Source: a bacterium
GTDB lineage: Bacteria > Patescibacteriota > Minisyncoccia > Moranbacterales > DUUL01
DNA length: 64,000 bases
Direction: 5' to 3'
Assembly: GCA_018675685.1 (NCBI GenBank)
Contig: JABGXP010000014.1
Location: 17,288 to 81,287 of the forward strand
The translations under genes were made by a program, and so were the position numbers. The notes under the pieces are model-generated. The model had not been told where the DNA came from and made no database searches. It worked only from the letters and a program-made list of their open reading frames with translations. Numbering within the stretch: position 1 is the stretch's first letter; the number at the start of each line of letters is the position of its first letter. Below, piece after piece: positions 3,376 to 61,248 of this stretch.

Positions 3376-4572
3376 ATGAGTGAGATTATAGACAGAATCC
3401 CAACATTTTCAGTTTCTCAGTATGTTGGTTTTATCAACAATTTGACAGCCGCTGTGCCAGTTCTAGTTGAGGGAGAAATAAGTAACTTCAGAGATATTCC
3501 CGGAAGAAATTTTTGTTATTTTGATATTAAGGACAAAAATGCTGTTGCAAAATGTTTCCAAGGGTTTTGGCACAGTAAGAAAGTTGCACTTGAGAATGGT
3601 GCGACGGTGAAGATTTTTGGCAACCCAACCTTGCAGAAAAATGGCTCCTTAGTAATTGATGTAAGGGAGGTTTTTTTGATTGGTGATGGAGCTCTAAGAA
3701 AGCAATACCAGGAGCTTAAAGAGCGACTTGAAAAAGAAGGATTGTTTGGTTTAGAGTTTAAAAAGGAAATTCCCATTTTTCCAATTTCCATTGGCCTAAT
3801 CGCTGGGAAAAACTCTAGCGCCTACCACGACGTAGTGACTGAGATTTCTGAACGATGGGGAAATGTAGAGATCTTTTTTCATGGGGTAAAAGTCCAGGGT
3901 ATTAATGCTAGAAAAGAGATTGTGCAGGCAATTAGATATTTCAATAGACGACAAACAGTTGATGTTTTGATTGTTGCGAGAGGCGGTGGGAGTATGGAGG
4001 ATCTACAAGCTTTTGATTCAGAGGATGTAGTGAGAGAGATTTTTGCCTCTAAAATCCCGACTATCAGTGCAATCGGTCACGAAGATCATTGGACGCTTGC
4101 TGATTTTGTTGCGGATGTACGAGCAAAAACACCCACAAAGGCAGCACAGATTGCTGTGCCTGACCGAGATGAAATTTCAGATAAATTAGATTTTTTTTCA
4201 ACAAGAGTCAAAGGTTTGGTTCAAGCCAAGTTGAGCGAAGCGAAAATAAATGTAAATACTCTAAATGATAAACTACGGACGAAGATTGAGGATAAATTAG
4301 CTAGAATTAGACAGGACATTAAGTTTCAGCAAGAATCGCTTACAGTTATTGTAAAAAAGAACATAGAAGATAAGCGAAATAGACTTGAAAATCTTTGCAA
4401 AATGCTCGGAGCATTAAACCCCGAAAGTATTTTAAAGAGAGGGTACGGCGTTGTGCAAAAAAAAGGCAAAAGAATCACCGATATTGATGAAGTGAAAGTA
4501 GGGGATGAAATTTCAGTGAGGTTGCAAAATGGAGAAATAAGAAGTAAAATACAAGAAGTGAGAAGTATTTAG
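3376..4572 (+). CDS. xseA: Exodeoxyribonuclease VII large subunit
   Basis: N-terminal OB fold; catalytic core GGGSMEDLQAFDSEDVVREIFASKIPTISAIGHEDHWTLADFVADVRAKTPTKAA; C-terminal coiled coil. Confidence 0.9.
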   Translation: MSEIIDRIPTFSVSQYVGFINNLTAAVPVLVEGEISNFRDIPGRNFCYFDIKDKNAVAKCFQGFWHSKKVALENGATVKIFGNPTLQKNGSLVIDVREVFLIGDGALRKQYQELKERLEKEGLFGLEFKKEIPIFPISIGLIAGKNSSAYHDVVTEISERWGNVEIFFHGVKVQGINARKEIVQAIRYFNRRQTVDVLIVARGGGSMEDLQAFDSEDVVREIFASKIPTISAIGHEDHWTLADFVADVRAKTPTKAAQIAVPDRDEISDKLDFFSTRVKGLVQAKLSEAKINVNTLNDKLRTKIEDKLARIRQDIKFQQESLTVIVKKNIEDKRNRLENLCKMLGALNPESILKRGYGVVQKKGKRITDIDEVKVGDEISVRLQNGEIRSKIQEVRSI

Positions 4573-6333: not shown

Positions 6334-6424
6334 CAGAACCCTCAATATGTTCAGTCGTATACCAGCTTATACCGTAGAACTAAAAAGCTTTTTGAAGAAT
6401 TTGAATAAAAGTTAAAATAAAAAA

Positions 6425-6958
6425 ATGGAAAATCAAAACCAAACAGGGGAAGAAGAGGCTTTGGCTAAACCTAGAAGCGAAGATTTTTTGGATAGTAATA
6501 AGAAGTTGCCGCAATCAACAAGCCATCAGGATGATGGGAAAAAAAACGTAGCTTTTAAACAAAAAACTCATAAAGATTTGCACGCGGAAAATGCCGAATT
6601 CCAACAAACAATGCATTCTCAAAATGCAAAACAAGCATATTATATTCCAGACGGTGTCCCAGATGAATTAGTAGAAGATCTAAGCGGATCAAAAGCCAGA
6701 TCAAAGGGTATTATCTCAATTGTTTGCGCAGTGATTTCTCTGGTATTTTTCCCTCCAGTTTTTGGTTTTATCGGAGTATCTTTCGGAGTGAAAGCGAGAA
6801 AATTAGGAGCCAAAACACTCGGGTCAGTTGGAATTATTCTTTCCTCGGTGTTTATGGGCGTTGGAATTGCATTAAGTAGTTGGTATTTCAATTCCGAAAA
6901 AGCAAGTGGAGAGGAACTTATAGGCGGAACAGTTGGTTTGTTTTTGAAACTTTTTTAA
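6425..6958 (+). CDS. DUF4190-like small membrane protein
   Basis: Polar Q/K-rich N-terminus, then two hydrophobic helices (GIISIVCAVISLVFFPPVFGFIGVSFGVKARKLGAKTLGSVGIILSSVFMGVGIA). Preceded by the A-rich start context TAAAATAAAAAAATG. Confidence 0.45.
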   Translation: MENQNQTGEEEALAKPRSEDFLDSNKKLPQSTSHQDDGKKNVAFKQKTHKDLHAENAEFQQTMHSQNAKQAYYIPDGVPDELVEDLSGSKARSKGIISIVCAVISLVFFPPVFGFIGVSFGVKARKLGAKTLGSVGIILSSVFMGVGIALSSWYFNSEKASGEELIGGTVGLFLKLF

Positions 6959-11107: not shown

Positions 11108-12154
11108 ATGCAAAAAGAAACAATTGAAAAACTTAGAGAAACTGCAACCGGTGAATTAGAAAAAGCGAATTCATTAAATTCCCTTGAAGAGTTGAGGGTG
11201 AAATATTTGGGTCGGAAAAGTGAGTTTATCGGAATTTTACGTGGTTTGAAGGACCTAAGTGTTGAAGATAAGAAAGTTATTGGCCCTTTAGCTAATCAGG
11301 CTAAGATTGAAATCGAGTCAGGAATTCAAACAAAAATAACTTTTATTGAACAGCAAGAAAATGATGCGAAGGAATGGATTGATGTCACTCTCCCAGGCGA
11401 AAAAGAGAGAGTTGGTTCCATGCACGTGATTTCTCAAATTCAAAAGGAAATTGAAGACATTTTTATTTCTATGGGATTTGAAATTGGCGATGGTCCAGAA
11501 ATTGAAACAGAATGGTATAATTTTACAGCGCTAAATGTTCCAGCCGATCATCCAGCACGGGATATGCAAGATACTTTTTGGCTGAAACAGTCGCAGAAAA
11601 ACGAAAATAATAAAGAGGAGAAAATTTTACCAAGAACACAGCTTTCTCCGGATCAAATTCATTACATGCAATCACACACGCCTCCATTTAGAGTGATTGT
11701 ACCAGGGCGGGTATATCGAAATGAATCGACTGATGCAACACACGAACATACCTTTCATCAATTTGAAGCACTAGTTGTGGGGGAGGATATTTCGGTGGCA
11801 AACTTTAAGAGTATTGCACAAACATTTTTTTCAAAATTCTTTGGAAAAGAGCTCGAGATTCGTCTTCGACCGGGATACTTTCCTTTTACGGAACCTAGTT
11901 TCGAGTTTGATATTTCTTGTACAGTTTGTGGCGGTCAGGGTTGTCGATCTTGTAAAAACACAGGTTGGCTCGAAGTTGGTGGATGCGGAATGGTTAATCA
12001 ACGTGTTTTTGAGAATGCTGGATATGAAAGAAACAAATGGCAGGGCTTTGCCTGGGGCTTTGGAATGGAAAGATTAGCTATGATGAAATATAAAGTTGAC
12101 GACATTAGATTGTTTATGAGTGGAGATTTGCGTTTTTTAAGACAGTTTAAATAA
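11108..12154 (+). CDS. pheS: Phenylalanine--tRNA ligase alpha subunit
   Basis: Class II catalytic motifs (FRVIVPGRVYRNE; GWLEVGGCGMV; FAWGFGMERLAM). Confidence 0.95.
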   Translation: MQKETIEKLRETATGELEKANSLNSLEELRVKYLGRKSEFIGILRGLKDLSVEDKKVIGPLANQAKIEIESGIQTKITFIEQQENDAKEWIDVTLPGEKERVGSMHVISQIQKEIEDIFISMGFEIGDGPEIETEWYNFTALNVPADHPARDMQDTFWLKQSQKNENNKEEKILPRTQLSPDQIHYMQSHTPPFRVIVPGRVYRNESTDATHEHTFHQFEALVVGEDISVANFKSIAQTFFSKFFGKELEIRLRPGYFPFTEPSFEFDISCTVCGGQGCRSCKNTGWLEVGGCGMVNQRVFENAGYERNKWQGFAWGFGMERLAMMKYKVDDIRLFMSGDLRFLRQFK

Positions 12155-12170
12155 AAACTAAAATAAAAAA

Positions 12171-13229
12171 ATGAATCAAGAAAATCTTTCCAAAAGAATT
12201 AATCAACCGGAAAATGTCTCTAAAGAGAAAAGCAATCCGGCATTTCATCTTTTTCTCTATTTGGTATCATTTTTGTCACTTAGTTTTTTAGTTGCAGGAA
12301 TTTTGATTTCAATTCACCAAGCAATTAACAAGTTCATCCCCGATTCATTGGATTCTAGCTATTTTGATAATGATGCGATTAAATTTGGCTTATCTGCACT
12401 TATTGTGACGATTCCACTTTATTATGGAATTTTATTTTTATTGAACAGGAAACTTGAAAGAAAAGAAATTCCAGCCGACTCCTTGGTACGAAAAACCATC
12501 ACATATTTAGCATTAGTTGCTTTCTCAGCAATGGCAATTGGGAGTCTCGTTTCAATTATGTATAGTTATTTTGACGGTGAAATAACAACCAGATTTGTGC
12601 TTAAGGCACTTTCTTTTTTGTTTGTTTCCACTTTCTTCTTTGGCTTTTATTTTTGGGAAATCAGACGTTCGGAATTTTTCAAGAGCATGTTTATGAACTT
12701 TTTCATAGCTTCTATAGTGATCGCTCTGGCTTCAATGGTTCTGGGATTTTTTGTTATTGATAATCCAACGACAGCTAGGAATAAAAGAATTGACAATGAG
12801 CTGATTCAAAATATGAGCGATGCTGGTAGGAAGATCAATTTAGAATTTAAGGGGCAAGATGAATTTAATCAAGGTCTTTCAGTAAGACAATCCCAACGTG
12901 ATAAAATGATTTTGGAAATGGCTAAGAATGGAAATACTCCAGAAGAAATTGAAAAGGTTGTAAATAAGTTTTATGGGGGAGACATGATCGGAAAGTTGCC
13001 AACTAATCAGGAAATGAACGGAAAAATTGATAAGAATGTTGTCTATAAGACAAAAGAGGGAAGTTTCTATGAGTTATGTGGGGATTTTAAAATAGAAAAT
13101 AAAACAGGTGGCAACAACTGGAATTCAAATGGAGATAAATGGGCTCATCCAGCTGGAAATCATTGTTTTGTATTTGATGCAAAAGACAATGCATACAATA
13201 ATTATCCAATTCAAATGAAAGTTAATTAG
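12171..13229 (+). CDS. Hypothetical polytopic membrane protein (DUF5671-like N-terminus) with C-terminal soluble domain
   Basis: At least five hydrophobic helices in the first ~200 aa, then a polar C-terminal domain (…GDFKIENKTGGNNWNSNGDKWAHPAGNHCF). Inserted between pheS and pheT. Confidence 0.45.
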   Translation: MNQENLSKRINQPENVSKEKSNPAFHLFLYLVSFLSLSFLVAGILISIHQAINKFIPDSLDSSYFDNDAIKFGLSALIVTIPLYYGILFLLNRKLERKEIPADSLVRKTITYLALVAFSAMAIGSLVSIMYSYFDGEITTRFVLKALSFLFVSTFFFGFYFWEIRRSEFFKSMFMNFFIASIVIALASMVLGFFVIDNPTTARNKRIDNELIQNMSDAGRKINLEFKGQDEFNQGLSVRQSQRDKMILEMAKNGNTPEEIEKVVNKFYGGDMIGKLPTNQEMNGKIDKNVVYKTKEGSFYELCGDFKIENKTGGNNWNSNGDKWAHPAGNHCFVFDAKDNAYNNYPIQMKVN

Positions 13230-32319: not shown

Positions 32320-32621
32320 AATAAATAGTGTTTTTTAATAAAAAAAGCCTTATTTGGCTTAACTATCCACAATTTTCATGATTGAAATGGACTAATACTC
32401 CTTCCACAAAATGCTTCAAATAAGATGTTGATTCTTAATTATATACTTTATTTTGAATTTTGTAAAGGCCTGTTCTTTTATCAAAGCTTTATTGCTAGGG
32501 AAGGAAGATTGTTTTTTTCCTATAATTTTTGGTATAGTTAGAGAATATAATTGTCTGTTGAATTGAACTTTGGTGTTTGAAAGACAAAAGATTTAGATTG
32601 TTTAAAAAATAAATCAAAAAA

Positions 32622-33485
32622 ATGAGCTGGTTTTCTTTTGTAATTTTTTCAATTTTTGCACTCGCGTTTGCAGAGTTATCTCAACAGAAACTTTTGAATT
32701 TGAAAAATGGTTTTAATGAAAGGGCGAGTGCCGTTTTAACTTTTGGCTTCCAATTTATTTTAAGCATCCCATTGGTTTTTATTTTTGGGCTTGATGATGA
32801 AATTTTTTCAATCTTTAGAACCTCTGTTTGGCAGCAAGTATTATTTGGGACATTCATTGCATCCTTTGGAATGGTTTTGTATTTAAAAAGCTTTAAAGTT
32901 AAAAATATAAGTTTTTCAGCTATTTTGATTTCATCTTCTGCGATTATTTCAACATTTTTAGGTATTTTATTTTTTTCGGAGTCGGTTACGGGGTTGAAGT
33001 TTTTTGGGATTTTCTTGATTCTAGCCGCTGTTGTTGTTGTGAACTTTAAAAATGCTGACATTGAAAAAAACCACATCTTTGGTTTATTTGCAGGCTTGAT
33101 TTTCGGAGTGGCTTTTACGATTGATAAAAGCGTCATGCAAGACATCCAACCCCTGGTGTATATTTTTTGGAGTTTTCCTCTGATTTCGATTTGGGGATTA
33201 TCATTTGGTTATAAAAAAGTTACATGCTCAATAAAAGGGAAAAAGTTTAGCGCTTACAAGCCGATAGCAATATCAGGAATAGGATATTTACTTTTCAACA
33301 TTGCCACTTTTAGCGCATACCATGCTGGCGGAGAAGTCGGGCGAGTAGATGCTATCAACACTACCTATATTTTCATTATAATTCTTTTTGAATATTTCTT
33401 TTTAAAGAGTAAGAGTGGAGTTAAAAGAAAACTCATCGCCACATTTTTGGCATTTTTGGGAATTTTGTCGTTAGGAATAATTTGA
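32622..33485 (+). CDS. EamA/DMT-family transporter (10 TM)
   Basis: 287 aa, two repeated 5-TM halves, no soluble domains. Confidence 0.5.
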   Translation: MSWFSFVIFSIFALAFAELSQQKLLNLKNGFNERASAVLTFGFQFILSIPLVFIFGLDDEIFSIFRTSVWQQVLFGTFIASFGMVLYLKSFKVKNISFSAILISSSAIISTFLGILFFSESVTGLKFFGIFLILAAVVVVNFKNADIEKNHIFGLFAGLIFGVAFTIDKSVMQDIQPLVYIFWSFPLISIWGLSFGYKKVTCSIKGKKFSAYKPIAISGIGYLLFNIATFSAYHAGGEVGRVDAINTTYIFIIILFEYFFLKSKSGVKRKLIATFLAFLGILSLGII

Positions 33486-37396: not shown

Positions 37397-37635
37397 AAGT
37401 CGTTTCTCCTTTCTAAAAGTGGTTGTGGGAATGAACCGATACATCTCTTTTCATTGAGAGTTTTTTATTTAAACACAAAAATGAAAAGTAAGCAACTCTA
37501 TCGTATGTATTTTATTTTTTATATGCTATAATTTCATACAAATAAGAGTGAAAACAAAATCAGCAAAAAACGTATATATAGATTGTATACACAATTAAGA
37601 CAAAAGCATAAGCAATTAAAAATTAAAGAAAAAAA

Positions 37636-38277
37636 ATGAAGAAAAGAAATGCAATTATCGCAATTGCAACTTTCGCATTGTTCGGTGGTACTTTATTAGC
37701 TCAAGCTGCAATGTTGACGTCAGAAGAACGAGAAGCCTTAAGGGTAGAGAGAACTGAATTGAGAGACGGCATGAAAGAAAATAGAGCTGAGCTGAAAGAA
37801 GACCGAAAAGAAAACCGAGAACAAATAAAAGAGGAAAAAAAGGAAAAAAGATGCGAAAGAATTGAGAATAGAATTCAAACTAGAATCAAGCGTTACGAAA
37901 ACAAACAAGAACAACACAAGAATGTTTTTGGGAAATTAGTGACACGAGCCAATGGAGTGGTAATAAAACTAAAAGCAAGAGGTCTTGATACTTCAGATTT
38001 GGAAAGTGATCTAACGACATTAAAAGCTAAGGTGCAAGAATTGGAAGAAGAGCACAAAAATTTCATTGAAGGTTTGGATGCGACTGAGACAGTCGCTTGT
38101 GGTGGGTCAAATGGAGAATTCAAAGAAAAATTGGGCGAAGCACGCAAGATGTCTTCCGAAGTGCACACAAAACTACAAGCCGTAAGGGACTATTACAAAA
38201 CAACAATAAGAGCTGATATCTTGGAGTTGCGGAAACAACTCAACAAAGAAGCCAATGAAGATCAAGAAGTGGAATAA
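37636..38277 (+). CDS. Hypothetical secreted coiled-coil protein
   Basis: Signal peptide MKKRNAIIAIATFALFGGTLLAQAA, then a highly charged E/K/R-rich helical sequence. Confidence 0.5.
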   Translation: MKKRNAIIAIATFALFGGTLLAQAAMLTSEEREALRVERTELRDGMKENRAELKEDRKENREQIKEEKKEKRCERIENRIQTRIKRYENKQEQHKNVFGKLVTRANGVVIKLKARGLDTSDLESDLTTLKAKVQELEEEHKNFIEGLDATETVACGGSNGEFKEKLGEARKMSSEVHTKLQAVRDYYKTTIRADILELRKQLNKEANEDQEVE

Positions 38278-52793: not shown

Positions 52794-53738
52794 ATGAAGT
52801 CAAAAGAAAAGCTTTTATCGATAGTTGTTCCGATATATAACGAGGGTGAGAACGTAGAGAAGTTGCACCAGGAGGTTTTGTCTGCAATAAAAAAAAATAA
52901 GCTAAATGCCGAAATTATCTTTGTTGATGATGGAAGTTCTGATAATACAGTCAAACTAGCAGAGAAATTAACGCCGTTGAGATTGATTGTCTTTCGGAGA
53001 AATTTTGGACAGACAGCTGCTATGGATGCTGGGATAAAAGCTGTTAAAGGTGAAATTGTTGTCACGATGGACGGCGACTTGCAAAATGATCCCAACGACA
53101 TTCTTTTGCTTCTAGAGAAGATGGACGAGGGCTTTGACATTGTTTCTGGCTGGAGAAAGAACAGAAGAGATCCTTTCATGAAAAAACTTCTTTCTCGGGG
53201 AGCTGATAAGTTGCGAAAAACCTTAATTAATGATCAAATAAATGATAGCGGTTGCTCCTTAAAAGCTTATAAAACAGAGTGTTTTGAGAATGTTGATTTA
53301 TACGGCGAGATGCACAGATTTATTCCAGCAATTTTGAAAATTAAAGGTTTTAAAGTGGGGGAAGTAGTTGTGAGCCATAGACCAAGGATAGCAGGCGAGA
53401 CAAAATACACCTACACACGACTTGCAAAAGGACTTTTGGATTTAATCGGAGTTTGGTTTTGGCGAAAATATGCAAATAGACCACTCCATCTTTTCGGAGG
53501 AATTGGTTCGATTATGGGGTTTGTGGGAACACTAATCCTAATTTGGATGGCAATTGAAAGGGGAATCTTCGGCAATCCAATTGGTGATCGAATTTGGCCA
53601 GTGATCGGAGTACTATTTGTGGTTCTGGGAATCCAATTTTTTGTATCAGGAGTGATTGCAGATATTGCGGTAAAGACCTATTACACAGCAAAAAAAGAAA
53701 CCGTTTATCTAGTAAAAGACGTGATTGAAAATAAATAA
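52794..53738 (+). CDS. GT2 polyprenyl-phosphate glycosyltransferase (GtrB/DPM1/ArnC-like) with two C-terminal TM helices
   Basis: LSIVVPIYNEGENV, FVDDGSSDNT, MDGDLQNDP; C-terminal hydrophobic pair. Confidence 0.85.
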   Translation: MKSKEKLLSIVVPIYNEGENVEKLHQEVLSAIKKNKLNAEIIFVDDGSSDNTVKLAEKLTPLRLIVFRRNFGQTAAMDAGIKAVKGEIVVTMDGDLQNDPNDILLLLEKMDEGFDIVSGWRKNRRDPFMKKLLSRGADKLRKTLINDQINDSGCSLKAYKTECFENVDLYGEMHRFIPAILKIKGFKVGEVVVSHRPRIAGETKYTYTRLAKGLLDLIGVWFWRKYANRPLHLFGGIGSIMGFVGTLILIWMAIERGIFGNPIGDRIWPVIGVLFVVLGIQFFVSGVIADIAVKTYYTAKKETVYLVKDVIENK

Positions 53739-53803
53739 AGATTCAGGATAGAAAGAATTTCAGTACCCATGGCTGCAGCTATGGGTACTTTGCAGCTCTT
53801 CTC

Positions 53804-53832
53804 TTGAAAAGTAGCCAAAAGTACGCTATAAT
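53804..53832 (+). promoter_or_regulatory. Consensus sigma70 promoter (TTGAAA-17-TATAAT) upstream of small membrane gene and gyrB
   Basis: TTGAAA at 53804-53809, a 17-nt spacer, TATAAT at 53827-53832. Confidence 0.55.
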
Positions 53833-53913
53833 GTAGCTAGTTGATTTTGAAAAACATGAAAGAAGATAGCGAAAACAAAATCACGTGTTTAAGAAATAAA
53901 TTGCATAAATAAA

Positions 53914-54300
53914 ATGTCGATAGGAGCATTTCTTTGGGGGATGCGGCTTATTTTGTTGATTGGATTTATGGGGGCAGTCGGAATGATTTTTTCGTTCGCT
54001 CCATATTTTGATGCAAAGTCGCTTGAAGTAAACTATTTTGTGATAGGATTATTTTATTTATTTCTATTCCTATTTTTAATGGGAATGTTTTCACTTTTCC
54101 TATTCAAACTCAAGGGTTCTAGTGGAAAAGATGATGAAATAAAAACCAATGTCAGAGTTTCATTCCGCCAAGGCTTTTTTCTTAGCGTAATGGTACTGAT
54201 TCTTTTGCTGTTGCAAAGTTTTCGTGTTTTAGTTTGGTGGGATGGTCTTTTGGTTGTAGGAGCAGTCTTAATGGCAGAATCATATTGTTTAGTTAGATAG
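53914..54300 (+). CDS. Hypothetical small membrane protein (4 TM)
   Basis: 128 aa, four hydrophobic segments, upstream of gyrB. Confidence 0.4.
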   Translation: MSIGAFLWGMRLILLIGFMGAVGMIFSFAPYFDAKSLEVNYFVIGLFYLFLFLFLMGMFSLFLFKLKGSSGKDDEIKTNVRVSFRQGFFLSVMVLILLLLQSFRVLVWWDGLLVVGAVLMAESYCLVR

Positions 54301-54348
54301 AAATTTATCGATTTTAATTAATAAGAAGGGGTGTAATAAAAAGAAAAA

Positions 54349-56343
54349 ATGGTACAGAAAGAAAGATCAAGTAAAGAATATACCGCGAAGTCTATCCAAG
54401 TCTTGGAAGGATTGGAGCCGGTTCGAAAGCGTCCAGGGATGTATATCGGTGGAACATCGCTCGAGGGTTTACATCATTTGATTTGGGAAATTGTTGCGAA
54501 TTCGATTGATGAGGCAATGGCGGGGTATGGAAAATACATAGAAGTTGTTATCGGTAAGGATAACATGGTCACAGTTTCGGATAAGGGTCGTGGGATCCCA
54601 GTTGATAAGCATAAACAGACAGGATTAACAGCTCTTGAAACAATCTTTACAAAACTGCATGCAGGAGGAAAATTTGGTGGAGACAATACCGGATATAAAG
54701 TTTCCGGAGGTTTGCATGGTGTGGGTGCTTCAGTGGTTAATGCACTTTCCGTGATGACTCGAGCTGAAATTCACAAGGGTGGGAAAATTTGGGTACAAGA
54801 GTATTCGAAGGGAATAACACTTGCAAAAGTCCAAGCTGTTGGAAAAACTGATAAAACCGGATCTATTATTTCATTTGTACCAGACCCAGAAATTTTTCCA
54901 GAAATTGAATGGAGTTGGAAAACAGTCGTTGATTATCTTAGACAACAGGCATATTTAACAAAAGGGGTTCACTTCAAACTAGTTGATGAGCGTTTTGAGG
55001 ATCCAAAACAAAATCAAAGTATCGGTTTTTGTTTCGATGGAGGAATCCGCTCTTTTGTGCAATTTGCAAATCGCAAGAAAGATATCGTAAATCCAACAAT
55101 TTTCTATGTTGAAAAAGAAAAGGATAATATGATTGTGGAAGTTGCAATGCAATATCAAGATACTTTCAAGGACAAAGTCTCTTCTTTTGCAAATAATATA
55201 CCAACAATTGAAGGTGGGATGCATGAAACCGGCTTTAGGTTTGCGCTAACAAGAACAATCAATGATTACGCTAGAAAAAATAATATTCTAAGAGAAAAGG
55301 AGAATAATCTAACCTCAGACGATGTACGAGAAGGTTTGACGGCTGTGGTTTCTGTGAAGTTGCAAGACCCACAATTTGAGGGACAGACAAAATCAAAGCT
55401 TGGAAATTCAGAAGCCAGAACGATTACTAGTTCGGTTGTTTCTGAAAGCCTTATTGAATATTTTGAAGAAAATCCACAGGATGCGAAGATGATTATTATG
55501 AAAGGGTTGATTTCTGCGAAAGCCCGACTTGCTGCAAAGGCTGCAAAGGATGCTGTTGTGAGAAAAGGAGTTTTAGAGGGTATGACTCTTCCAGGAAAAC
55601 TTGCAGATTGTTCTTCGAGGGATGCTTCAAAGACAGAATTATATATTGTAGAGGGAGATTCTGCTGGTGGAAGTGCAAAGCAAGGAAGAAACAGGAGAAC
55701 ACAAGCAATTTTGCCATTAAAGGGAAAGATTTTGAATGTTGAGAAGGCGAGATTGGATAGGATGCTTGCTTCTCAGGAAATTAAGTCGCTCGTGATTGCA
55801 TTGGGTGCAGGGATTGGTGATCAGCTTAATTTTGACAAACTGCGATATCATCGGATTATTATCATGACAGATGCCGATGTCGACGGTTCTCACATTAGAA
55901 CACTCCTTTTGACTTTGTTCTATCGTCATTTTGAAGAATTGCTAAAACGTGGATATATTTATATCGCTCAACCACCTTTATTCCAAATCAAAGAAGGAAA
56001 AAAAGAGCATTATGTTTATACAGACGAGGAAAAAGAACGTGTTTTGAAAGAAATTGCAAAAAGAAAAGGCGCTTTGGTTGATGGAGAGATTGATGAAGAA
56101 AATGAAGAATTTAAGAAGATTGCTGGAGTTGGAATTCAACGATACAAGGGTCTTGGGGAAATGAACCCAACACAACTTTGGGACACAACAATGAATCCAG
56201 AAACTCGTGTAATGTTGCAAGTTTCGATTGAGGATGCCGAAAAAGCAGACGAAGCTTTCACGGTCTTGATGGGTAGCGAAGTTGCACCAAGGAAGAAGTT
56301 TATTCAATCTCATGCAAATAAAGTCCAAAACTTGGATGTCTAA
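54349..56343 (+). CDS. gyrB: DNA gyrase subunit B (type IIA topoisomerase B subunit; ParE not excluded)
   Basis: GHKL ATPase motifs (GLHHLIWEIVANSIDEAMAGYG; GLHGVGASVVNALS); TOPRIM EGDSAGGSAK; the PLKGKILNVEKA motif. Confidence 0.9.
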   Translation: MVQKERSSKEYTAKSIQVLEGLEPVRKRPGMYIGGTSLEGLHHLIWEIVANSIDEAMAGYGKYIEVVIGKDNMVTVSDKGRGIPVDKHKQTGLTALETIFTKLHAGGKFGGDNTGYKVSGGLHGVGASVVNALSVMTRAEIHKGGKIWVQEYSKGITLAKVQAVGKTDKTGSIISFVPDPEIFPEIEWSWKTVVDYLRQQAYLTKGVHFKLVDERFEDPKQNQSIGFCFDGGIRSFVQFANRKKDIVNPTIFYVEKEKDNMIVEVAMQYQDTFKDKVSSFANNIPTIEGGMHETGFRFALTRTINDYARKNNILREKENNLTSDDVREGLTAVVSVKLQDPQFEGQTKSKLGNSEARTITSSVVSESLIEYFEENPQDAKMIIMKGLISAKARLAAKAAKDAVVRKGVLEGMTLPGKLADCSSRDASKTELYIVEGDSAGGSAKQGRNRRTQAILPLKGKILNVEKARLDRMLASQEIKSLVIALGAGIGDQLNFDKLRYHRIIIMTDADVDGSHIRTLLLTLFYRHFEELLKRGYIYIAQPPLFQIKEGKKEHYVYTDEEKERVLKEIAKRKGALVDGEIDEENEEFKKIAGVGIQRYKGLGEMNPTQLWDTTMNPETRVMLQVSIEDAEKADEAFTVLMGSEVAPRKKFIQSHANKVQNLDV

Positions 56344-56392
56344 AGTTGAAAAATTTAGGTTGAGTATTTAGATAAAAACTAAAAAATAAAAG

Positions 56393-56758
56393 ATGAAAAT
56401 AAAAAACAAAATCATTCCCATTTGTTTAATCGTTGTCATTGCAATATTAGTTAAAAATTTTGAAGGCTTGGTCTCTGGTGAAATAGTGCATAAGTTTTTG
56501 AAAATGATAATTTTTCCAGAAAAATTTGAAATAGTTTTTTCAGTTCTACAATTGATTTGTGTAATCTTTTTTCTTCTAAGTGTGCTTGTTTCAATAATTT
56601 CTGGCCCAATGTATTTTTTTGTGAGAAAAGACATTGTAAAATCTAAGATGGTGAAAAAATATATTAAATATTCAGTATTAGGTCTTTTCGGGTCTTTTGC
56701 TCTGTATCTATTAGTAATTTTGATAAGAATTTTTGTTTTTGGTGGTACATTGCAATAA
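56393..56758 (+). CDS. Hypothetical 3-TM small membrane protein (paralog family with 56818 gene)
   Basis: Shares the segment FF(V/R)RKDI(V/E)K(S/E)K between TM helices with the next ORF; A-rich start context. Confidence 0.45.
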   Translation: MKIKNKIIPICLIVVIAILVKNFEGLVSGEIVHKFLKMIIFPEKFEIVFSVLQLICVIFFLLSVLVSIISGPMYFFVRKDIVKSKMVKKYIKYSVLGLFGSFALYLLVILIRIFVFGGTLQ

Positions 56759-56790
56759 TATTCATAGTTTTTTATAATTTTACTAGTCTG

Positions 56791-56848
56791 TAATATTAAA
56801 AATTAAAATAAAAAAAAATGAAAGTAGCCATTAATGATTTTGGTTGGA
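56791..56848 (+). repeat. Duplicated copy of the gap 5' leader plus first ~10 codons (compare 57176-57233)
   Basis: taatattaaaaattaaaataaaaaaa(aa)ATGAAAGTAGC(C/T)AT(T/A)AATG(A/G)TTTTGGT(T/C)GGA is near-identical between the two loci. Confidence 0.6.
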
Positions 56849-57171
56849 CAGTGAAAGCAAAAATGATAATTTTAGGCGCATTGTTTATTTTTCAGGCTAA
56901 GGTTGCAAATGCGAGTATCACTTTAGACCGGCTCTTTGAGTATACATGGTTTGAGTCGGCATTTCATATCATGCAATGGGCACTTTTAATTTTTTTATGC
57001 ATTTTCTCCCTTCTAACATTTGTTTTTGCAATATCGTTAATTTTTTTTAGAAAAGACATTGAAAAAGAAAAGTTCATAAGAGGTAAAGCATTAGTTGCTG
57101 CTATTTCTTCTGTCATCTTAAGTTTTATTTATGCATTTACTACATTTCTAGCACCAATGATTAGTAATTAA
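56818..57171 (+). CDS. Chimeric small membrane protein: gap-derived N-terminus (MKVAINDFGW) fused to a 3-TM paralog of the 56393 gene
   Basis: Its first ~30 nt of coding sequence and the upstream leader duplicate those of gap, with the GxGxxG motif destroyed (G to D, R to W); the remainder is hydrophobic and carries the FFRKDIEKEK motif. Confidence 0.45.
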   Translation: MKVAINDFGWTVKAKMIILGALFIFQAKVANASITLDRLFEYTWFESAFHIMQWALLIFLCIFSLLTFVFAISLIFFRKDIEKEKFIRGKALVAAISSVILSFIYAFTTFLAPMISN

Positions 57172-57200
57172 TTTATAATATTAAAAATTAAAATAAAAAA

Positions 57201-58199
57201 ATGAAAGTAGCTATAAATGGTTTTGGTCGGATTGGGCGACCTGTGTTGAAGATTTCACTGGAGAATCCCAATGTTGAGGTTGTAGCAATCAATGATCTGG
57301 GGGAGCTGGAAACTCTTGCATATCTCTTGAAATATGACACTTCTTATGGTGTTTATTCAAAAGACGTACAAATTAAAGATGGAAACCTAGTTGTGAATGG
57401 AAAGGAAATCAAGGTTTTCAGTGAAAGGGACCCCAAAAAGCTTCCTTGGAAGGAATTGGGTGTTGACGTGGTGTTTGAGTGTACAGGCATCTTCAAGGAC
57501 CGAGAGAGTGCTTCTGCACATCTTGATGCTGGAGCAAAGAGAGTTTTGATTTCAGCTCCAACGAAAGATAAAAGTTTAAAGACTATAGTTTTGGGTGTAA
57601 ATGAAAAAGAGATTATGGATGGTGACCAAATTCTTTCGATGGCATCTTGTACTACAAATTGTATTGCTCCAATTATGAAAGTATTGGAGGATAAATTTGG
57701 AATCGAGAAGTCACTGATGACAACGATCCATAGCTATACTTCAACACAGTCGCTTATTGATGGACCTTCAAAGAAAAAGCTTCGAGAAGGGCGAGCAGCA
57801 GCTCTTAATATCATTCCTTCAACAACAGGGGCTGCGATTGCTGCAGGAAAAACAATTCCAGCATTGAATGGAATTTTTGACGGGATGGCTTTCAGGGTTC
57901 CAACTGCGGTTGGCAGTGTGAGTGATGTTGTTGCTGTCTTGAAAAAAGATGCGACAGAAGAAAAAATAAATGAAGCACTTGAAGAAGCTTCAAAAGGAGT
58001 GATGAATGGAGTGATGCTTGTAACAGATGAGCCACTTGTTTCACATGATATTGTTGGAAGCAGTTATTCTGTGATTGTTCAGAAAGAACTTACAAAGGTC
58101 GTGGGAGGGAATATGGTGAAAATTGTAGGATGGTATGACAATGAATGGGGATATTCAACAAGATTAGTTGATTTGGCGGTCAGATTGTTTCATAAGTAA
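57201..58199 (+). CDS. gap: Glyceraldehyde-3-phosphate dehydrogenase (type I)
   Basis: MKVAINGFGRIGR Rossmann motif; catalytic SCTTNC; 332 aa. Confidence 0.95.
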   Translation: MKVAINGFGRIGRPVLKISLENPNVEVVAINDLGELETLAYLLKYDTSYGVYSKDVQIKDGNLVVNGKEIKVFSERDPKKLPWKELGVDVVFECTGIFKDRESASAHLDAGAKRVLISAPTKDKSLKTIVLGVNEKEIMDGDQILSMASCTTNCIAPIMKVLEDKFGIEKSLMTTIHSYTSTQSLIDGPSKKKLREGRAAALNIIPSTTGAAIAAGKTIPALNGIFDGMAFRVPTAVGSVSDVVAVLKKDATEEKINEALEEASKGVMNGVMLVTDEPLVSHDIVGSSYSVIVQKELTKVVGGNMVKIVGWYDNEWGYSTRLVDLAVRLFHK

Positions 58200-58216
58200 A
58201 AAACAACAATACATAT

Positions 58217-58429
58217 ATGAAAGTCATTATAGAAAATTTTGGCAGACTCGTACCTTTTATTTTATTTTTGTTTAGTACAATATTTTTTGTGACGTATACG
58301 TTAAAGTGGCTAATGTCAAATAAAGATTCTCAACAGGCCAGGAAGTTCATGCTCTACATATTGTTTTCAGCAATGGGATTTTTAGTCTCAATGATTTTTG
58401 CTGTTTTTATAATGTTTGAGAATAATTAG
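58217..58429 (+). CDS. Short hydrophobic ORF with gap-like N-terminus (MKVIIENFGRL); possibly the degenerate core of a gap remnant
   Basis: Its N-terminal ~35 nt resemble the gap start, and it is followed in the gap frame by the 3' gap fragment. Confidence 0.3.
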   Translation: MKVIIENFGRLVPFILFLFSTIFFVTYTLKWLMSNKDSQQARKFMLYILFSAMGFLVSMIFAVFIMFENN

Positions 58430-58500
58430 GATAGGATGATAATGAATGGGGATATTCAACAAGATTAGTTGATCTTGCTGTGAGATTGTTTCATAAATAA
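58425..58500 (+). pseudogene. Duplicated 3' fragment of gap (…DDNEWGYSTRLVDLAVRLFHK*), about 90% identical to 58124-58199
   Basis: atgaatggggatattcaacaagattagttgat...agattgtttcataaataa versus the real gap 3' end; in-frame remnant with an internal stop. Confidence 0.55.
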
Positions 58501-58730
58501 TTTATGTTTTAAGTTTAAGAAAAAAGTTTGTTGTATTCTTATATGCAACAAACTTTTTCTTTTTAGTGTGGCTCTTATCTCTTGCAATAAATCTTCAAAT
58601 GCTTCATAGTTAAGGTGCTAGAGGAAGAAAATGATACTTAAGGGAAGTGTTATTTTTTTGATAAAAAAGAGCTATGCAAATAGCCTAGTCTTAAATAAAA
58701 GAGAATTGAGAAATAAATTACAAAGTTTTT

Positions 58731-60131
58731 ATGAATTTGAAAAATAAAAAAGTTACAGTAATGGGAATCGGTCTTCATGGTGGAGGTGTCGCGATGATTT
58801 CTTGGCTATCTAAACAAGGTGCCCGTGTTTTTGCAACTGACAAAAAAACAGCAGAAGAATTGAAAAATTCATTGGAGAAGATAGAGAAATTGAAAAATGT
58901 TAAAATTATTACAGGACAGCATCGAATGGAGGATTTTACTCATGTTGATTTAGTGATTAAGAATCCAGATGTTTCTTGGACTAATAAATACATCAAGGCT
59001 GCGTTAGAGAGTAAAGTGCCCGTTGAGATGGATTCCAGTTTGTTTATGAAGCTTTGTCCCACAAAGAATATAATAGGTATTACAGGGACAAAAGGTAAAA
59101 CTACTACGTCGCTTATGATTGCGCATATCCTTGAAGAGGCCGGGAAACATGTTGTTAGAGTTGGTATTGGGCAAGAAGCTGTGATAAACAAACTTGCACA
59201 AATCAAAAAAGATTCCTGGGTTGTTTTTGAGCTGTCTTCTTGGAGATTAAGTGCTTTGGAGCAGATCAAAAGAAGTCCACGCATTGCTATTGTAACAAAT
59301 ATTTTTCAAGATCATTTGAATCGTTATAGCTCAATGGAGACATATGTTCTAGATAAAGAAAAGATTTTTCGTTTTCAAAAAGAGGAGGATTTTCTTATTT
59401 TGAATTATGATCAAACGGAATACTTTGAAGAATTTTCCCAACAAGCAAAAGGAAAAATAGTTTCTTTTACAAAAAATAATGAGACAACCCTTCATGGTTT
59501 GTTTGTTGATAAAGAAAAAATTAAATATAAATCCGAAGAGAAAGAAATTGAGTTGTTTGAGGTCAAGGATATGGCACTGAGAGGAAAGCACAATCTTTCC
59601 AATGCACTTGCTGCAAGTGCCGCCGCTATCTTGGTTGGAGTCTCGGAACAAACTATTAAAAATGCAATTTCGACTTTTTCTGGTGTGAAGCATAGACTGG
59701 AGTATATTGGGAAGAGAAATGGTGTTGCTTATTACAATGACACAACAGCTACGACCCCTGAATCTGCAATTGTTGGGATAGAGTCGTTTTCTCGTCCAAT
59801 CCATTTAATTTGTGGTGGGTCTAACAAGAAATTGGACTTGCGACCACTCGCGCGAAAAATTGCAATGGATGAAAATGTAATCTCAATCTCACTTTTAAAA
59901 GGTGGGGCAACTGAAACTCTAATTAAACTTCTTAGAGAATTTGATGGAGCATCTAAAAAAATCAGGGGACTTTATGATGAAATGAAAAATGTTGTGCATG
60001 ATTTATACACAAATTCAAAAGAAGGGGAGATTGTTCTTCTTTCTCCTGGATGTGCTAGTTTTGGAATGTTTGTGAATGAATTTGACAGAGGAGAGCAGTT
60101 TCGAGAAGCAATTAAAGAAATTGAGAAGTAG
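58731..60131 (+). CDS. murD: UDP-N-acetylmuramoylalanine--D-glutamate ligase
   Basis: N-terminal Rossmann VTVMGIGLHGGGVA; P-loop GITGTKGKTTT; Mur ligase central and C-terminal domains. The ATG at 58761 is an alternative start. Confidence 0.9.
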   Translation: MNLKNKKVTVMGIGLHGGGVAMISWLSKQGARVFATDKKTAEELKNSLEKIEKLKNVKIITGQHRMEDFTHVDLVIKNPDVSWTNKYIKAALESKVPVEMDSSLFMKLCPTKNIIGITGTKGKTTTSLMIAHILEEAGKHVVRVGIGQEAVINKLAQIKKDSWVVFELSSWRLSALEQIKRSPRIAIVTNIFQDHLNRYSSMETYVLDKEKIFRFQKEEDFLILNYDQTEYFEEFSQQAKGKIVSFTKNNETTLHGLFVDKEKIKYKSEEKEIELFEVKDMALRGKHNLSNALAASAAAILVGVSEQTIKNAISTFSGVKHRLEYIGKRNGVAYYNDTTATTPESAIVGIESFSRPIHLICGGSNKKLDLRPLARKIAMDENVISISLLKGGATETLIKLLREFDGASKKIRGLYDEMKNVVHDLYTNSKEGEIVLLSPGCASFGMFVNEFDRGEQFREAIKEIEK

Positions 60132-60192
60132 TAAATTTCGATAAACACAATGATATAAGTAGAACACTTAAAGATTAAATATTGGAAAATAA

Positions 60193-61248
60193 ATGAAAAA
60201 AATAATAGGAGCTCTCGCTATCAGTATCCTTTTCTTTTCAATAGTAGCACTTTGTGGATACAATTGGATACGGGGCGGTGCGTTTGAAAGTACGGTAAGC
60301 GAGTCTAATATTTTGCAAAAATTTGAAATTAAAGAAGGCGAGGGAGTAAAGGTCATTGCAAAAAACCTTTTCAAGGAAAAACTAATAGAAGAAGAGAATT
60401 TCTTTCTTTACTATATTTGGAAGACAAAGAAAGGAAGCGGATTGCAAGCTGGTGTGTACGAGCTTTCCCCTGATATGATTATCCCTGATATTGTGGACAA
60501 GTTTACTGACGGAAAAATTAAAGTAGAAGTTTTAAAGCTAACTGTCCCAGAAGGATTTACGAATAAGAAAATCATTGCACTTTTACGAGAAAAAAAACCT
60601 GAAATTTCTGATGAATTTGAAAGTATTATCCAATGCAAATGTTTAAGCACTCAAAATTGTGAGTGTGATAAATTCAGCAAAAAGTATGATTTTTTAGCTG
60701 AAATTCCTGTCGGAGTTGATATGGAGGGTTATCTTTTCCCTGATACTTATTTTATTGACAAGGAAGAAACGGGGGCAACATTGGTAAGCAAATTTTTGAA
60801 TAATTTCAAAAACAAAATTGATGCCGATTTAACTAAAAAAATTGAGCTAAGTGGAGAAAGTTTATATGAAGTTATTACATTGGCTTCGATTGTAGAAAGG
60901 GAAGTTCCAACGGAAGAGGATGCAAAAATGGTGGCAGGAGTTTTTAGAAACCGTCTTCAAGTTGGAATGGCACTGGAAAGCTGTGCAACGCTAGCATATT
61001 TTCAAGGGGTTGATAAACGCCAATTTTCCTTTGAAGACACTAGAGTTGAATCTCCATATAATACGTATATAAATCCAGGGCTTCCACCTGGACCAATTTC
61101 GAATCCAGGCCTAACTTCTATTAAGGCGACAGTCAGTCCAACTAATTCAGACTATATTTTCTTTTTGTCTGATTTTAAAACAGGGGAAACTGTTTATTCA
61201 AAGACACTAGCCGAGCACAATTTAAACAAAGATAAGCATGGGTTGTAA
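60193..61248 (+). CDS. mltG: Endolytic murein transglycosylase MltG (YceG-like)
   Basis: N-terminal TM; YceG domain motifs (LASIVEREV; GVFRNRL; ESCATLAY; GLPPGPISNPG). Confidence 0.85.
   Translation: MKKIIGALAISILFFSIVALCGYNWIRGGAFESTVSESNILQKFEIKEGEGVKVIAKNLFKEKLIEEENFFLYYIWKTKKGSGLQAGVYELSPDMIIPDIVDKFTDGKIKVEVLKLTVPEGFTNKKIIALLREKKPEISDEFESIIQCKCLSTQNCECDKFSKKYDFLAEIPVGVDMEGYLFPDTYFIDKEETGATLVSKFLNNFKNKIDADLTKKIELSGESLYEVITLASIVEREVPTEEDAKMVAGVFRNRLQVGMALESCATLAYFQGVDKRQFSFEDTRVESPYNTYINPGLPPGPISNPGLTSIKATVSPTNSDYIFFLSDFKTGETVYSKTLAEHNLNKDKHGL

Follow-up and report, generated by a model that had tools for sequence, protein, structure and literature searches.

In the window analysed here, a 64-kb stretch of DNA, the intact gap gene (type I GAPDH) stands between partial copies of its own two ends. 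Its leader, start codon and first 10 codons are repeated upstream, where they now begin a small membrane-protein gene (orfB), and its final 74 nt are repeated downstream, behind a second small ORF (orfC). The repeats are fixed among conspecific contigs and absent from relatives, the outer copy on each side adjoins the flank that gap ancestrally had there, and the bodies of both inserted ORFs lack similarity to gap. We suggest, at a probability of roughly 55%, that small membrane-protein cassettes were stacked around gap through recombination, unequal or illegitimate, in which copies of the gap leader acted as guides. The region contains the following features.

56367..56395, + strand: L1, oldest gap-leader copy, adjoining the gyrB stop and now ahead of orfA (consensus match)
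56393..56758, + strand: orfA, 121 aa, predicted 3-TM protein (ORF, codon usage, 3 hydrophobic segments)
56750..56778, + strand: predicted sigma-70-like promoter, TTGCAA-17-TATAAT, at the end of orfA (consensus scan, 10/12)
56791..56848, + strand: outer 5' repeat, copied gap leader, ATG and codons 1-10, now the start of orfB (self-comparison, blastn)
56818..57171, + strand: orfB, 117 aa, chimeric, gap codons 1-10 plus orfA-family body from codon 11
57176..57233, + strand: inner 5' repeat, functional gap leader, start codon and codons 1-10 (self-comparison, blastn)
57201..58199, + strand: gap, type I GAPDH, 332 aa, intact (Pfam)
58126..58199, + strand: inner 3' repeat, functional final 74 nt of gap with stop (self-comparison, blastn)
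58217..58429, + strand: orfC, 70 aa, 2 hydrophobic segments, gap-like first 11 residues (ORF)
58427..58500, + strand: outer 3' repeat, pseudo-3' end of gap without a start codon (self-comparison, blastn)
58521..58558, + strand: intrinsic terminator, 16-bp stem and T-run, the ancestral gap terminator

Copies of the gap ends and the genes attached to them

Pfam recovers gap at full length, with Gp_dh_N (E 4e-41) and Gp_dh_C (E 9e-58) both over their gathering scores. Comparison of the region with itself, which had been proposed for delineating the repeat copies, returned two significant direct repeats, the sole ones of at least 35 nt and above ~85% identity in the window. At the 5' end, blastn-short aligned 56791-56844 with 57176-57227 (90.7% identity, 54 nt, E 1.3e-12); by eye, the full repeat spans 56791-56848 and 57176-57233 with a 2-nt indel in an A-run (~91%), which bears out the original prediction that the gap leader and first ~10 codons had been copied upstream. 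The ~90%-identical copy of the gap 3' end that had been reported downstream was likewise recovered, with 58427-58500 matching 58126-58199 at 89% identity over 74 nt (E 3.7e-19). Such similarity might have been expected to vanish once A-runs were set aside. The coding portion of the 5' repeat (ATG plus 10 codons), however, is the same in both copies at 27/33 nt, the highest value among the 1230 ATG-started 11-codon stretches of the window, the best unrelated one reaching 21; the match is therefore more than A-runs. This ranking and the blastn-short E values rule out chance or low-complexity similarity for the 5' and 3' repeats. An extension of the 5' repeat upstream past the TATAAT box, by way of a 16-nt deletion, rested on an ambiguous alignment and was dropped.

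The two outer copies have diverged from gap in different ways. The 5' one carries 4 private substitutions within its 30 coding nt (GCC, ATT, GAT, TGG). The 3' one, read in the gap frame, gives LG, a stop, DDNEWGYSTRLVDLAVRLFHK and a second stop, the first stop reflecting a change from TGG to TAG; this frame is +1 relative to orfC, and the copy lies immediately 5' of the terminator, in the ancestral position.

The gap leader is short, A-rich and without a Shine-Dalgarno sequence. It is conserved in all orthologues examined, among species ~20% apart in coding DNA, and here it occurs three times, at 56367-56395, 56791-56820 and 57176-57203. When the window is compared without gaps to the 29-nt clade consensus of the leader (TTTAAATAAAAATTAAAAAACAAAAAATG), the first of these, L1, matches best, with 4 mismatches; its position after gyrB is that of the gap leader in insert-free relatives. 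The A-rich leader is also partly a generic motif of the genome, which weakens the case for every leader being a gap-leader copy. Rfam gave no covariance-model match at E ≤1 within 53000-61000. The orfC body matches the leader in inverted orientation, which we took as A/T-rich chance.

The predicted promoter recurs ahead of gap in a related species (L084); promoter-like sites are no more numerous in the region than in shuffled sequence. Because the promoter at 56750-56778 lies outside the 58-nt repeat, the duplicated part is the untranslated leader with the start, and not the promoter. The view that a small membrane-protein gene took over the expression signals of gap thus holds on the 5' side for leader, start and 10 codons, but not for the promoter. 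An A-rich initiation region precedes each of orfB, gap and orfC. The terminator at 58521..58558 is the sole terminator-like site in 56200-58800, with none between orfB, gap and orfC; in orthologues a hairpin stands ~16-60 nt past the gap stop, and the distance from the outer 3' copy to the terminator matches. From this layout we infer that gap may be embedded in a promoter-orfB-gap-orfC-terminator operon, whose orfB-gap-orfC transcript is predicted to end at this terminator.

We consider orfA to be the founder of a local small-membrane-protein family. Its codon-usage log-likelihood is 0.21 per codon in frame 0 and negative in the other frames. Codon usage is coding-like in orfB too, which begins MKVAINDFGW, with residues of the GxGxxG motif altered (G7D, R10W), and continues with three hydrophobic segments (residues 16-34, 57-75 and 93-111), in agreement with its earlier description as a gap-start fusion with a broken Rossmann motif and a 3-TM remainder. 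BLASTP placed residues 45-88 of orfB on residues 45-88 of orfA (E 4e-5), and at the DNA level the best in-frame ungapped identity, 43%, peaks exactly with codon 11 on codon 11, a value reached by 3/3000 codon shuffles. On these alignments, orfB is a diverged paralogue of the adjacent orfA, in exact register from codon 11. A recent tandem duplication of orfA as the source of orfB was rejected, the body identity being 43% against 90% for the repeats.

For orfC, the picture differs between peptide and DNA. Its N-terminus, MKVIIENFGRL, is the best non-gap match in the window to MKVAINGFGRI (BLOSUM62 score 36, next unrelated 23), so that the gap-like start claimed for it stands at the peptide level. 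The claimed likeness at the DNA level is unsupported, since 21/33 identical positions (64%) are tied with an unrelated site and local alignment of 58200-58426 with gap scores no higher than shuffles. The body DNA is 46% identical in frame to orfA from codon 55 and 44% to orfB from codon 55, identities that unrelated TM genes did not attain in any of 694 in-frame comparisons (codon-shuffle p ~0.003); the body probably belongs to the orfA family from codon 55. The codon-usage signal of orfC is weak (0.08 per codon), and a 3-sequence family HMM missed orfC and found no further member in 108 loci.

Database searches returned few relatives. No homologue of orfB was found in a word-indexed library of 5.8e9 proteins or, by exhaustive phmmer, in one of 1.8e9; orfC is an ORFan, with no homologue in the library of 5.8e9. 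Neither ORF has a donor or homologue among 15 billion public proteins or a relative in the IMG/VR viral data, and all three ORFs gave sub-threshold noise only against Pfam, NCBIfam, PHROG and PADLOC. In JGI metagenomes, relatives of orfA came from the L084 species again and nothing further.

The bodies between the repeats are also not gap sequence. At the repeat offsets their ungapped identity to gap is 26.6% (56849-57175) and 23.8% (58200-58426), against a background of 27%. Local alignments on both strands were equal to shuffles, by which we rejected the bodies as a frame-shifted or inverted gap core, and neither orfB nor orfC has a Gp_dh match in Pfam. In line with the original proposal, the arrangement is not a simple tandem duplication, while the suggestion of a decayed gap paralog fails on this background-level identity and on the kinship of orfB, and probably orfC, with orfA.

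These data bear on a history in which a gap unit from leader to stop was amplified to at least three tandem copies and the flanking copies were then hollowed out through deletion or insertion, so that only an N-terminal stub would remain upstream and, downstream, a "mini-gap" of N- and C-terminus. The repeat boundaries do coincide with the ends of such a unit (5' at the leader, 3' exactly at the stop codon), the gap-like peptide of orfC and the gap 3' end follow in the right order, and both repeats are similarly diverged (~9-11%). We nevertheless regard it as quite unlikely: the bodies retain no gap similarity on either strand and match the orfA family instead, and tandem gap copies occur in no relative examined. 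Moreover, 64% for the N-terminal codons of orfC against 89% for the 3' fragment indicates different ages and thus at least two events on the 3' side, which is hard to obtain from one copy of a single age.

The gap locus in relatives and in the population

Close relatives were found by protein search and contig look-ups; a GTDB genome scan with gap gave no close relative, as universal GAPDH motifs swamped its output. The gap orthologues are 79-91% identical at the amino acid level and share the gyrB-gap-murD synteny. A comparison of this region among relatives, suggested at the outset, was informative: the gene order is kept in 8 species-level relatives, and both coding-end repeats are absent from them. 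No intermediate genome was found. The spacers of the relatives are empty or hold a NUDIX gene, a 115-aa TM ORF, a minus-strand MamF_MmsF gene, an 88-aa ORF or 113/115-aa ORFs. Since the small genes differ between species, the spacers between gyrB and gap and between gap and murD are insertion hot spots; cassette content varies from species to species, and few genomes carry the orfA family.

The most direct comparison is with L084, which is colinear with the window from gyrB through orfA and the spacer to the outer 5' copy and then continues at the inner copy. The window is thus longer by ~327 nt and by a second copy of 53-58 nt, and its outer 5' repeat runs on from the orfA spacer exactly as the genuine gap start does in L084. 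Both 5' copies have xGG at codon 10 and both 3' copies have AGA, derived states that no orthologue shows (at the latter codon the orthologues have AAA, AAG or AAT). Because these shared substitutions are window-specific, we assign both duplications to this lineage. A separate insertion was seen on comparing L083 with L100, where an orfA-like 115-aa ORF is accompanied by a 33-nt leader duplication; judged by this comparison, the gain in L083 is an independent event. The capture pattern that had been postulated is thus a recurrent one, with orfA and the 115-aa ORF of L083 likewise lying behind gap-leader copies.

Within the species, the locus is base-identical (100%) in at least 23 long contigs of up to 242 kb from independent assemblies. 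These at least 23 contigs were read per look-up, out of 31-75 index blocks; they represent several assemblers and samples, and their sources include ENA, JGI, NCBI and Logan. No contig has orfA in an orfB-less context, JGI metagenomes gave 0 matches to an orfB-less recombinant allele, and alleles with the unit excised or the site empty were not found in the population.

An assembly artefact at the repeat, a caveat attached to the original prediction, can be practically discounted. It is true that contigs of several assemblies break within gap, at 57343-57575. These breaks coincide with a polymorphic 85-nt tract (20 SNPs in the gap genes of otherwise identical strains), which explains them, and not with the repeats, and the architecture is the same in all of the contigs just described.

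The 85-nt tract also suggests that short-patch recombination is ongoing at the locus, as does an orfA segment that is 91-97% identical to L084. In the latter species orfA is a pseudogene, and its DNA identity to the window is 87-97%, against ~80% in the flanks; the segment looks as if it had been exchanged between the species recently.

A possible history and its alternatives

In the history that we favour, members of one family (orfA, orfB, probably orfC, and the 115-aa ORF of L083) would have been stacked in the two spacers beside gap, with copies of the gap leader guiding unequal or illegitimate recombination. As the leader and ATG segments would have been paired in register, orfB would be composed of gap codons 1-10 and an orfA-type gene joined at codon 11. 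The junctions would lie inside the gap coding sequence, past codon 10 on one side and ahead of codon 311 on the other. Because gap is presumably indispensable and one intact copy is required, only events that duplicated the cut end would have persisted, each leaving an outer scar on its side of gap: the outer 5' copy would have become the leader, start and N-terminus of orfB, and the outer 3' copy would persist as 74 dead nucleotides, with orfC on one side and the former gap terminator on the other. No microhomology or other signature was established at the junctions. The cassettes may have originated within the genome or have been brought in by transformation. Since the bodies are mutually only ~43-46% identical while the gap-end repeats are ~90% identical, no cassette can be a recent copy of another, which leaves import from unsampled donors or, alternatively, gene conversion that keeps the repeats alike.

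A larger role for gene conversion is conceivable, if unlikely in our judgement. An old orfA-orfB-gap array, perhaps with orfC, would then have had the start of orfB overwritten by conversion from gap, which would also keep the 3' fragment gap-like, and relatives such as L084 would have lost orfB through deletion between the repeats. Bodies at 43-46% beside repeats at ~90%, the kept register of orfA and orfB and the conversion-like 85-nt tract segregating in gap all agree with this; a deletion across the 58-nt repeat would give the exact L084 arrangement, and concerted evolution also yields shared derived states. However, such a history requires the separate loss of orfB, orfC and the outer 3' copy in 8/8 relatives, and the species itself has yielded no orfB-less allele. 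Conversion of 30 coding nt without homology at the far end would still call for an illegitimate step, and the first arrival of the gap 3' fragment behind orfC is left unexplained.

The cassettes might instead be mobile in their own right. Units made of a small-ORF body and a gap leader or gap end would, lacking an integrase, excise as circles through their direct repeats and re-insert in Campbell fashion by homologous recombination at the conserved gap leader or ends, also across species after DNA uptake. The host's homologous recombination would then act on gap leader or end as the sole "attachment site", and a cassette would always land under the expression signals of the highly expressed gap gene and regenerate an intact gap. 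The repeat-body-repeat structure is what a single crossover of a one-repeat circle is expected to produce, and related ORFs have been inserted beside a leader three times, in 2-3 lineages. The conservation of the leader across species ~20% apart in coding DNA would fit as well, as would the apparent recent exchange of the orfA segment. Against this stand the failure to find an excised or empty-site allele in the population, the lack of a second copy or homologue of orfB and orfC in any library searched, a leader homology (26-33 nt) that is marginal for RecA-mediated recombination, and the unexplained origin of the first repeat-body unit. We hold enzyme-less mobility of this kind to be very unlikely.

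Classical mobile elements fit less well still. Remnants of site-specific integrative elements, one in the gap 3' end (as e14 in icd) and one in the 5' end (as Rac in ttcA), each having brought a replacement gene end and then been mostly deleted, would explain how a gene can stay intact while direct copies of its end bracket an insert, as with the 163-bp icd' fragment of e14 (PMC6379469). The inserts here, however, are only 327 and 227 nt with one small ORF each, contain no integrase, phage or defence family, have no viral relatives in IMG/VR, and are paralogues of the neighbouring chromosomal orfA; that two separate elements decayed to equally tiny size at both ends of gap is improbable, and we give this origin scant credence. 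As for a transposon or MITE, no inverted repeat pairs the insert ends and no other copies occur in the 64-kb window; the duplications of 58 and 74 nt exceed the range of transposon target-site duplications (2-15 bp). Integron cassettes would carry attC-like inverted repeats, none of which was seen at the cassette ends, and there is no integrase among the neighbours, which are gyrB, murD, yceG, ftsW, mraY and similar genes.

Known systems and meaning

It had been stated that no described system has this architecture; analogues do exist, both in gene-end duplication of the icd/e14 type and in tandem paralogue clusters whose moving unit spans two ORFs. [quoted passage not shown] The stretch 56849-57233, with the orfB body, the leader and gap codons 1-10, is a unit of the same type. 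Here, however, the role of the conserved segment falls to the leader and start of a housekeeping gene unrelated to the paralogues instead of a central region of theirs, and there are only 2-3 members.

Insertion of e14 in icd leaves a 163-bp icd' fragment, and Rac lies at the 5' end of ttcA (PMC6379469). The likeness lies in an insert within a gene end, a second copy of the end that keeps the gene intact and a pseudo-fragment beyond the insert; the differences are that no integrase or prophage is present here, that the inserts measure 227-327 nt and that their ORFs are paralogous to a chromosomal neighbour.

Homology-facilitated illegitimate recombination and transformation-induced merodiploidy offer a further comparison: one homologous anchor combined with an illegitimate or alternatively paired end adds DNA beside the anchor, and short mosaic imports are a typical outcome of transformation (PMC3240628; Johnston et al. 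2013, PMC3784515). By analogy, the 85-nt tract may be such an import. The experimental merodiploid duplications are 100-900 kb long with IS-repeat borders, in contrast to the 58-74 nt found here.

Chimeric genes can be born by partial duplication, when a new ORF captures the leader, start and first codons of an established gene. The present case differs in that the donor is an essential glycolytic gene of a reduced genome and that the capture is in register with the start of a paralogue.

On present evidence, then, the locus records an instructive, local rearrangement history, in which chimeric genes arose by local recombination, and it is not a new kind of system. Were the cassettes mobile by homology alone, this would be a new way for genes to move, and a very simple one. 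The flanks of gap emerge as a hot spot that differs between species, with recombination tracts of ~60-90 nt active at the locus, and the short A-rich leaders of these organisms, which lack a Shine-Dalgarno sequence, may serve as portable homology for unequal recombination. We thus suggest that the region offers a clean, datable natural case of new small membrane-protein genes gaining expression in a reduced, uncultured genome of the CPR/Patescibacteria type, by being joined to the leader, start and first codons of an essential gene that is itself rescued by duplication of its cut end.

Repeats at both ends of gap

The small ORFs orfA, orfB and orfC lie around gap, the type I GAPDH gene; orfA and orfB are predicted membrane proteins.

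Features of the gap locus (window coordinates)
54349-56343, gyrB
56393-56758, orfA, 121 aa
56750-56778, predicted promoter TTGCAA-17-TATAAT, outside the 5' repeat and common to the window and the related locus L084
56818-57171, orfB, 117 aa
57201-58199, gap, 332 aa
58217-58429, orfC, 70 aa
58427-58500, gap 3' fragment, 74 nt
58521-58558, intrinsic terminator
58731-60131, murD

The original prediction was correct overall in what it observed: a second gap start at orfB, a gap-like start of orfC and a second gap 3' end are all present. The two copies of the 5' repeat (outer 56791-56848, inner 57176-57233) agree at ~91% and differ by a 2-nt indel within an A-run (blastn-short E 1.3e-12); in the coding part alone, the ATG plus 10 codons, 27 of 33 positions agree. 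This is the highest value among the window's 1230 stretches that begin with ATG (next unrelated one, 21), so the match is independent of low-complexity A-runs. The copies of the 3' repeat (inner 58126-58199, outer 58427-58500) share 89% identity along their 74 nt (E 3.7e-19). Apart from these two pairs, the 64-kb window has no long direct repeats of high identity. Read in the gap frame, the outer 3' copy has TGG changed to TAG, has no start codon and lies +1 out of frame relative to orfC, and is thus a dead fragment. The start of orfC had been described as gap-like at the DNA level; the likeness holds for the peptide, MKVIIENFGRL being the best non-gap match to MKVAINGFGRI (score 36; next 23), but not for the DNA, where only 21 of 33 positions agree and local alignment of the orfC region to gap is no better than shuffles.

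An assembly error at a repeat, also raised in the original prediction, is refuted by independent contigs. Looking up gap, orfA, orfB and orfC by exact protein gave at least 23 contigs each, from 30-75 index blocks, with the same gene order throughout; the contigs carrying the locus are up to 242 kb long and stem from assemblies of ENA, JGI, NCBI and Logan, and the fetched loci are 100% identical to the window over 56.3-58.7 kb. Contigs of six assemblies do end or start inside gap, at 57343-57575, but these breaks coincide with an 85-nt tract (57350-57434) that segregates and differs by 20 substitutions, of which 18 affect third codon positions and two change amino acids (S53P and R76K). The breaks reflect strain polymorphism rather than repeat collapse. 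An artefact has practically no chance. Outside this tract, loci of the same species from three other samples match the window at 100% along 3.6-5.5 kb. The tract resembles a short stretch of mosaic DNA imported from a ~20% diverged gap allele and segregating in the population.

Variable spacers and the age of the duplications

The nearest named gap homologues come from Patescibacteria/Moranbacteria-type MAGs. In eight species-level relatives, whose gap is 79-91% identical in amino acids and ~74-82% in nucleotides, the order gyrB-gap-murD is always kept, while the spacers on either side of gap differ in every relative examined; both are hot spots.

Spacers flanking gap in related species (locus; gyrB-gap spacer; gap-murD spacer)
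L085, L086, L087, L101, L103, L105; only 40-60 nt; various
L087; 40 nt; 88-aa ORF, soluble, unrelated
L102, L103; about 40 nt; 115/113-aa membrane ORFs
L100; NUDIX gene; end of contig
L083; NUDIX gene and 115-aa TM ORF; MamF_MmsF gene, minus strand
L084; pseudogenised orfA; no called gene

The membrane ORFs of L102 (1728-2075, 115 aa) and L103 (5353-5694, 113 aa) are homologous to each other (E 5e-10) and have no detectable homology to orfA, orfB or orfC. The variable gap-murD spacer has its downstream edge at a block (58575-58626, CTCTTGCAATAAATC..CAAATGCTTCATAGTT) that is 88-90% conserved upstream of murD in L084, L086, L087 and L103, with unalignable spacer around it, and is probably the murD promoter. 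Immediately upstream of gyrB lies a 128-aa multi-TM ORF (53914-54300) with no family assignment; it is kept in every relative examined, with equivalents in L083-L087, L101 and L103, and its similarity to orfA is weak and non-significant (E 0.007).

No copies of the gap N-terminal codons or 3' end were found in the relatives examined, which makes the repeats peculiar to the species of the window. L084 is colinear with the window through gyrB, orfA, a 32-nt spacer and the outer 5' copy to 56844, and its alignment picks up again at 57176, in the inner copy; compared with L084, the window thus has ~327 nt extra plus a duplicated 53-58 nt. On the other side, the terminator stands ~20 nt after the outer 3' copy, as far as the hairpins of orthologues stand from their gap stop, and there is none after the functional gap stop. 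Substitutions common to both copies of each repeat occur in no orthologue: codon 10 is CGG/TGG in the two 5' copies vs CGA/CGT, and the fifth codon from the protein end is AGA in both 3' copies vs AAA/AAG/AAT. The duplications are thus younger than this lineage's separation from the relatives sampled, or else homogenisation has since made the copies alike. Of the two 5' copies, the outer one shows four substitutions of its own over 30 nt, among them G7D and R10W, by which the Rossmann motif is destroyed; the inner one shows zero, as expected under purifying selection on gap.

Origin of the inserted bodies and the leader

The original prediction had considered a decayed gap paralogue. This does not hold, since the bodies, the small-ORF sequences between the repeat copies, are 26.6% and 23.8% identical to gap at the repeat offsets, which is background, and local alignments on both strands do no better than shuffles; amplification of gap followed by decay is, on these figures, an unlikely origin of the repeats. 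Instead orfB resembles orfA (BLASTP E 4e-5, residues 45-88 on 45-88), with an ungapped DNA identity of 43% that peaks exactly at codon 11 against codon 11 (background 27.5 ± 2.7%; reached by 3 of 3000 codon shuffles). orfB is a diverged paralogue of orfA, and thus consists of gap codons 1-10 joined in register to an orfA-type gene. For the orfC body (58250-58426), in-frame identity is highest against codon 55 of orfA (46%) and of orfB (44%), values that none of 694 in-frame comparisons with T-rich membrane genes of other kinds reaches (codon-shuffle p ~0.003), and the body shares an [R/N]KD loop between two hydrophobic segments; it is probably of the same kind, and only probably because a three-sequence HMM misses it. 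Codon usage is gene-like for orfA and orfB and gives a weak signal for orfC. Neither orfB nor orfC has homologues besides themselves in a library of 5.8e9 clusters, or relatives in IMG/VR; exhaustive phmmer of orfB against 1.8e9 representatives found only itself, and no matching family was found in Pfam, NCBIfam, PHROG, PADLOC or Rfam.

An A-rich, Shine-Dalgarno-less leader of 26-29 nt, TTTAAATAAAAATTAAAAAACAAAAAATG, precedes gap in all orthologues despite a ~20% difference in coding DNA. Its best ungapped consensus match in the window is not at gap but at 56367-56395 (4 mismatches), directly after gyrB and before orfA, the site of the gap leader in insert-free relatives; the window therefore has three leader copies, before orfA, orfB and gap. 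An independent second case of leader duplication is found in the related species of L083: where L100 has the NUDIX gene followed directly by leader and gap (1127-1203), L083 has a 115-aa ORF related to orfA (E 4e-6) inserted after the ATGAAA of gap, and 33 nt of its leader are duplicated at 94% identity (3542-3573 and 3974-4006). The 85-nt spacer after this ORF holds (ATAAAG)n-like repeats. The leader is partly generic, as related motifs (TTTAAATAAAAAYTAAAATAAAAAAATG and variants) at 6400-6427, 12146-12173, 32605-32624 and 37619-37638 precede genes for DUF5671, EamA and two hypotheticals; the motif has 9 matches in the window vs 1.0 expected, and most window genes are without an SD-like sequence.

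Recombinational capture of the gap leader and N-terminal codons, as originally proposed, is supported; duplication of a promoter is not, since the predicted promoter lies outside the repeat and the duplicated part is leader plus start. A perfect TATAAT (57175-57180), with no recognisable -35, precedes the gap ATG by 21 nt and begins one base before the inner repeat, overlapping its start; gap may have kept its own promoter or may rely on read-through from orfB.

Proposed stacking of small genes around gap

We suggest, with a probability of about 0.55, a family of mechanisms in which unequal or illegitimate recombination piled up small-membrane-protein cassettes around gap. Copies of leader plus start would provide the pairing, which would account for the in-register junction of gap codons 1-10 with orfA-type codons from 11 on, the serial leader copies and the recurrence in L083. 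As gap is presumably indispensable, a junction inside its coding sequence would be retained only with the cut end duplicated, giving the outer scars; the product would be a predicted operon of promoter (56750-78), orfB, gap, orfC, pseudo-3' end and old terminator.

Short-tract recombination is demonstrably active at the locus, on the basis of the 85-nt mosaic tract and of the orfA segment (91-97% identical to L084, flanks ~80%). Over 56417-56800 vs L084 3571-3975 identity is 87-97%, with gyrB and gap on either side at only ~80%; the L084 copy of orfA is frameshifted and no longer has its ATG. The pattern suggests that the orfA cassette passed between the species not long ago, or that both acquired it recently. 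Mobile cassettes driven by homology are an unlikely reading. Neither transposon or MITE features (TIRs, short TSD) nor integron features (attC, IntI) were found at the inserts.

The bodies have diverged by ~55% and the repeats by ~10%, for which import from unsampled donors and concerted evolution of the repeats are the options; the latter, as an old array with gene conversion, is a less likely variant. The orfC N-terminal codons are 64% and the 3' fragment 89% identical to gap; they differ in age, which bears on the number of steps on the 3' side.

[quoted passage not shown] Duplication of a gene end is also shared with e14, which leaves a 163-bp icd' fragment in icd, and with Rac, which sits in ttcA (PMC6379469); because the defining integrase or element is absent from the inserts, the locus is not a member of that class, and decayed integrative elements are highly improbable. 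By analogy, homology-facilitated illegitimate recombination and transformation-induced duplication (PMC3240628, PMC3784515) are plausible mechanistic relatives.

Of the original interpretation, then, the capture of leader and N-terminal codons finds support, while the decayed paralogue and the assembly error do not. The locus represents known kinds of rearrangement in a new form rather than a new system; its modest interest is that of a clear example, from an uncultured organism with a reduced genome, of small genes becoming chimeric and of recombination guided by a leader.
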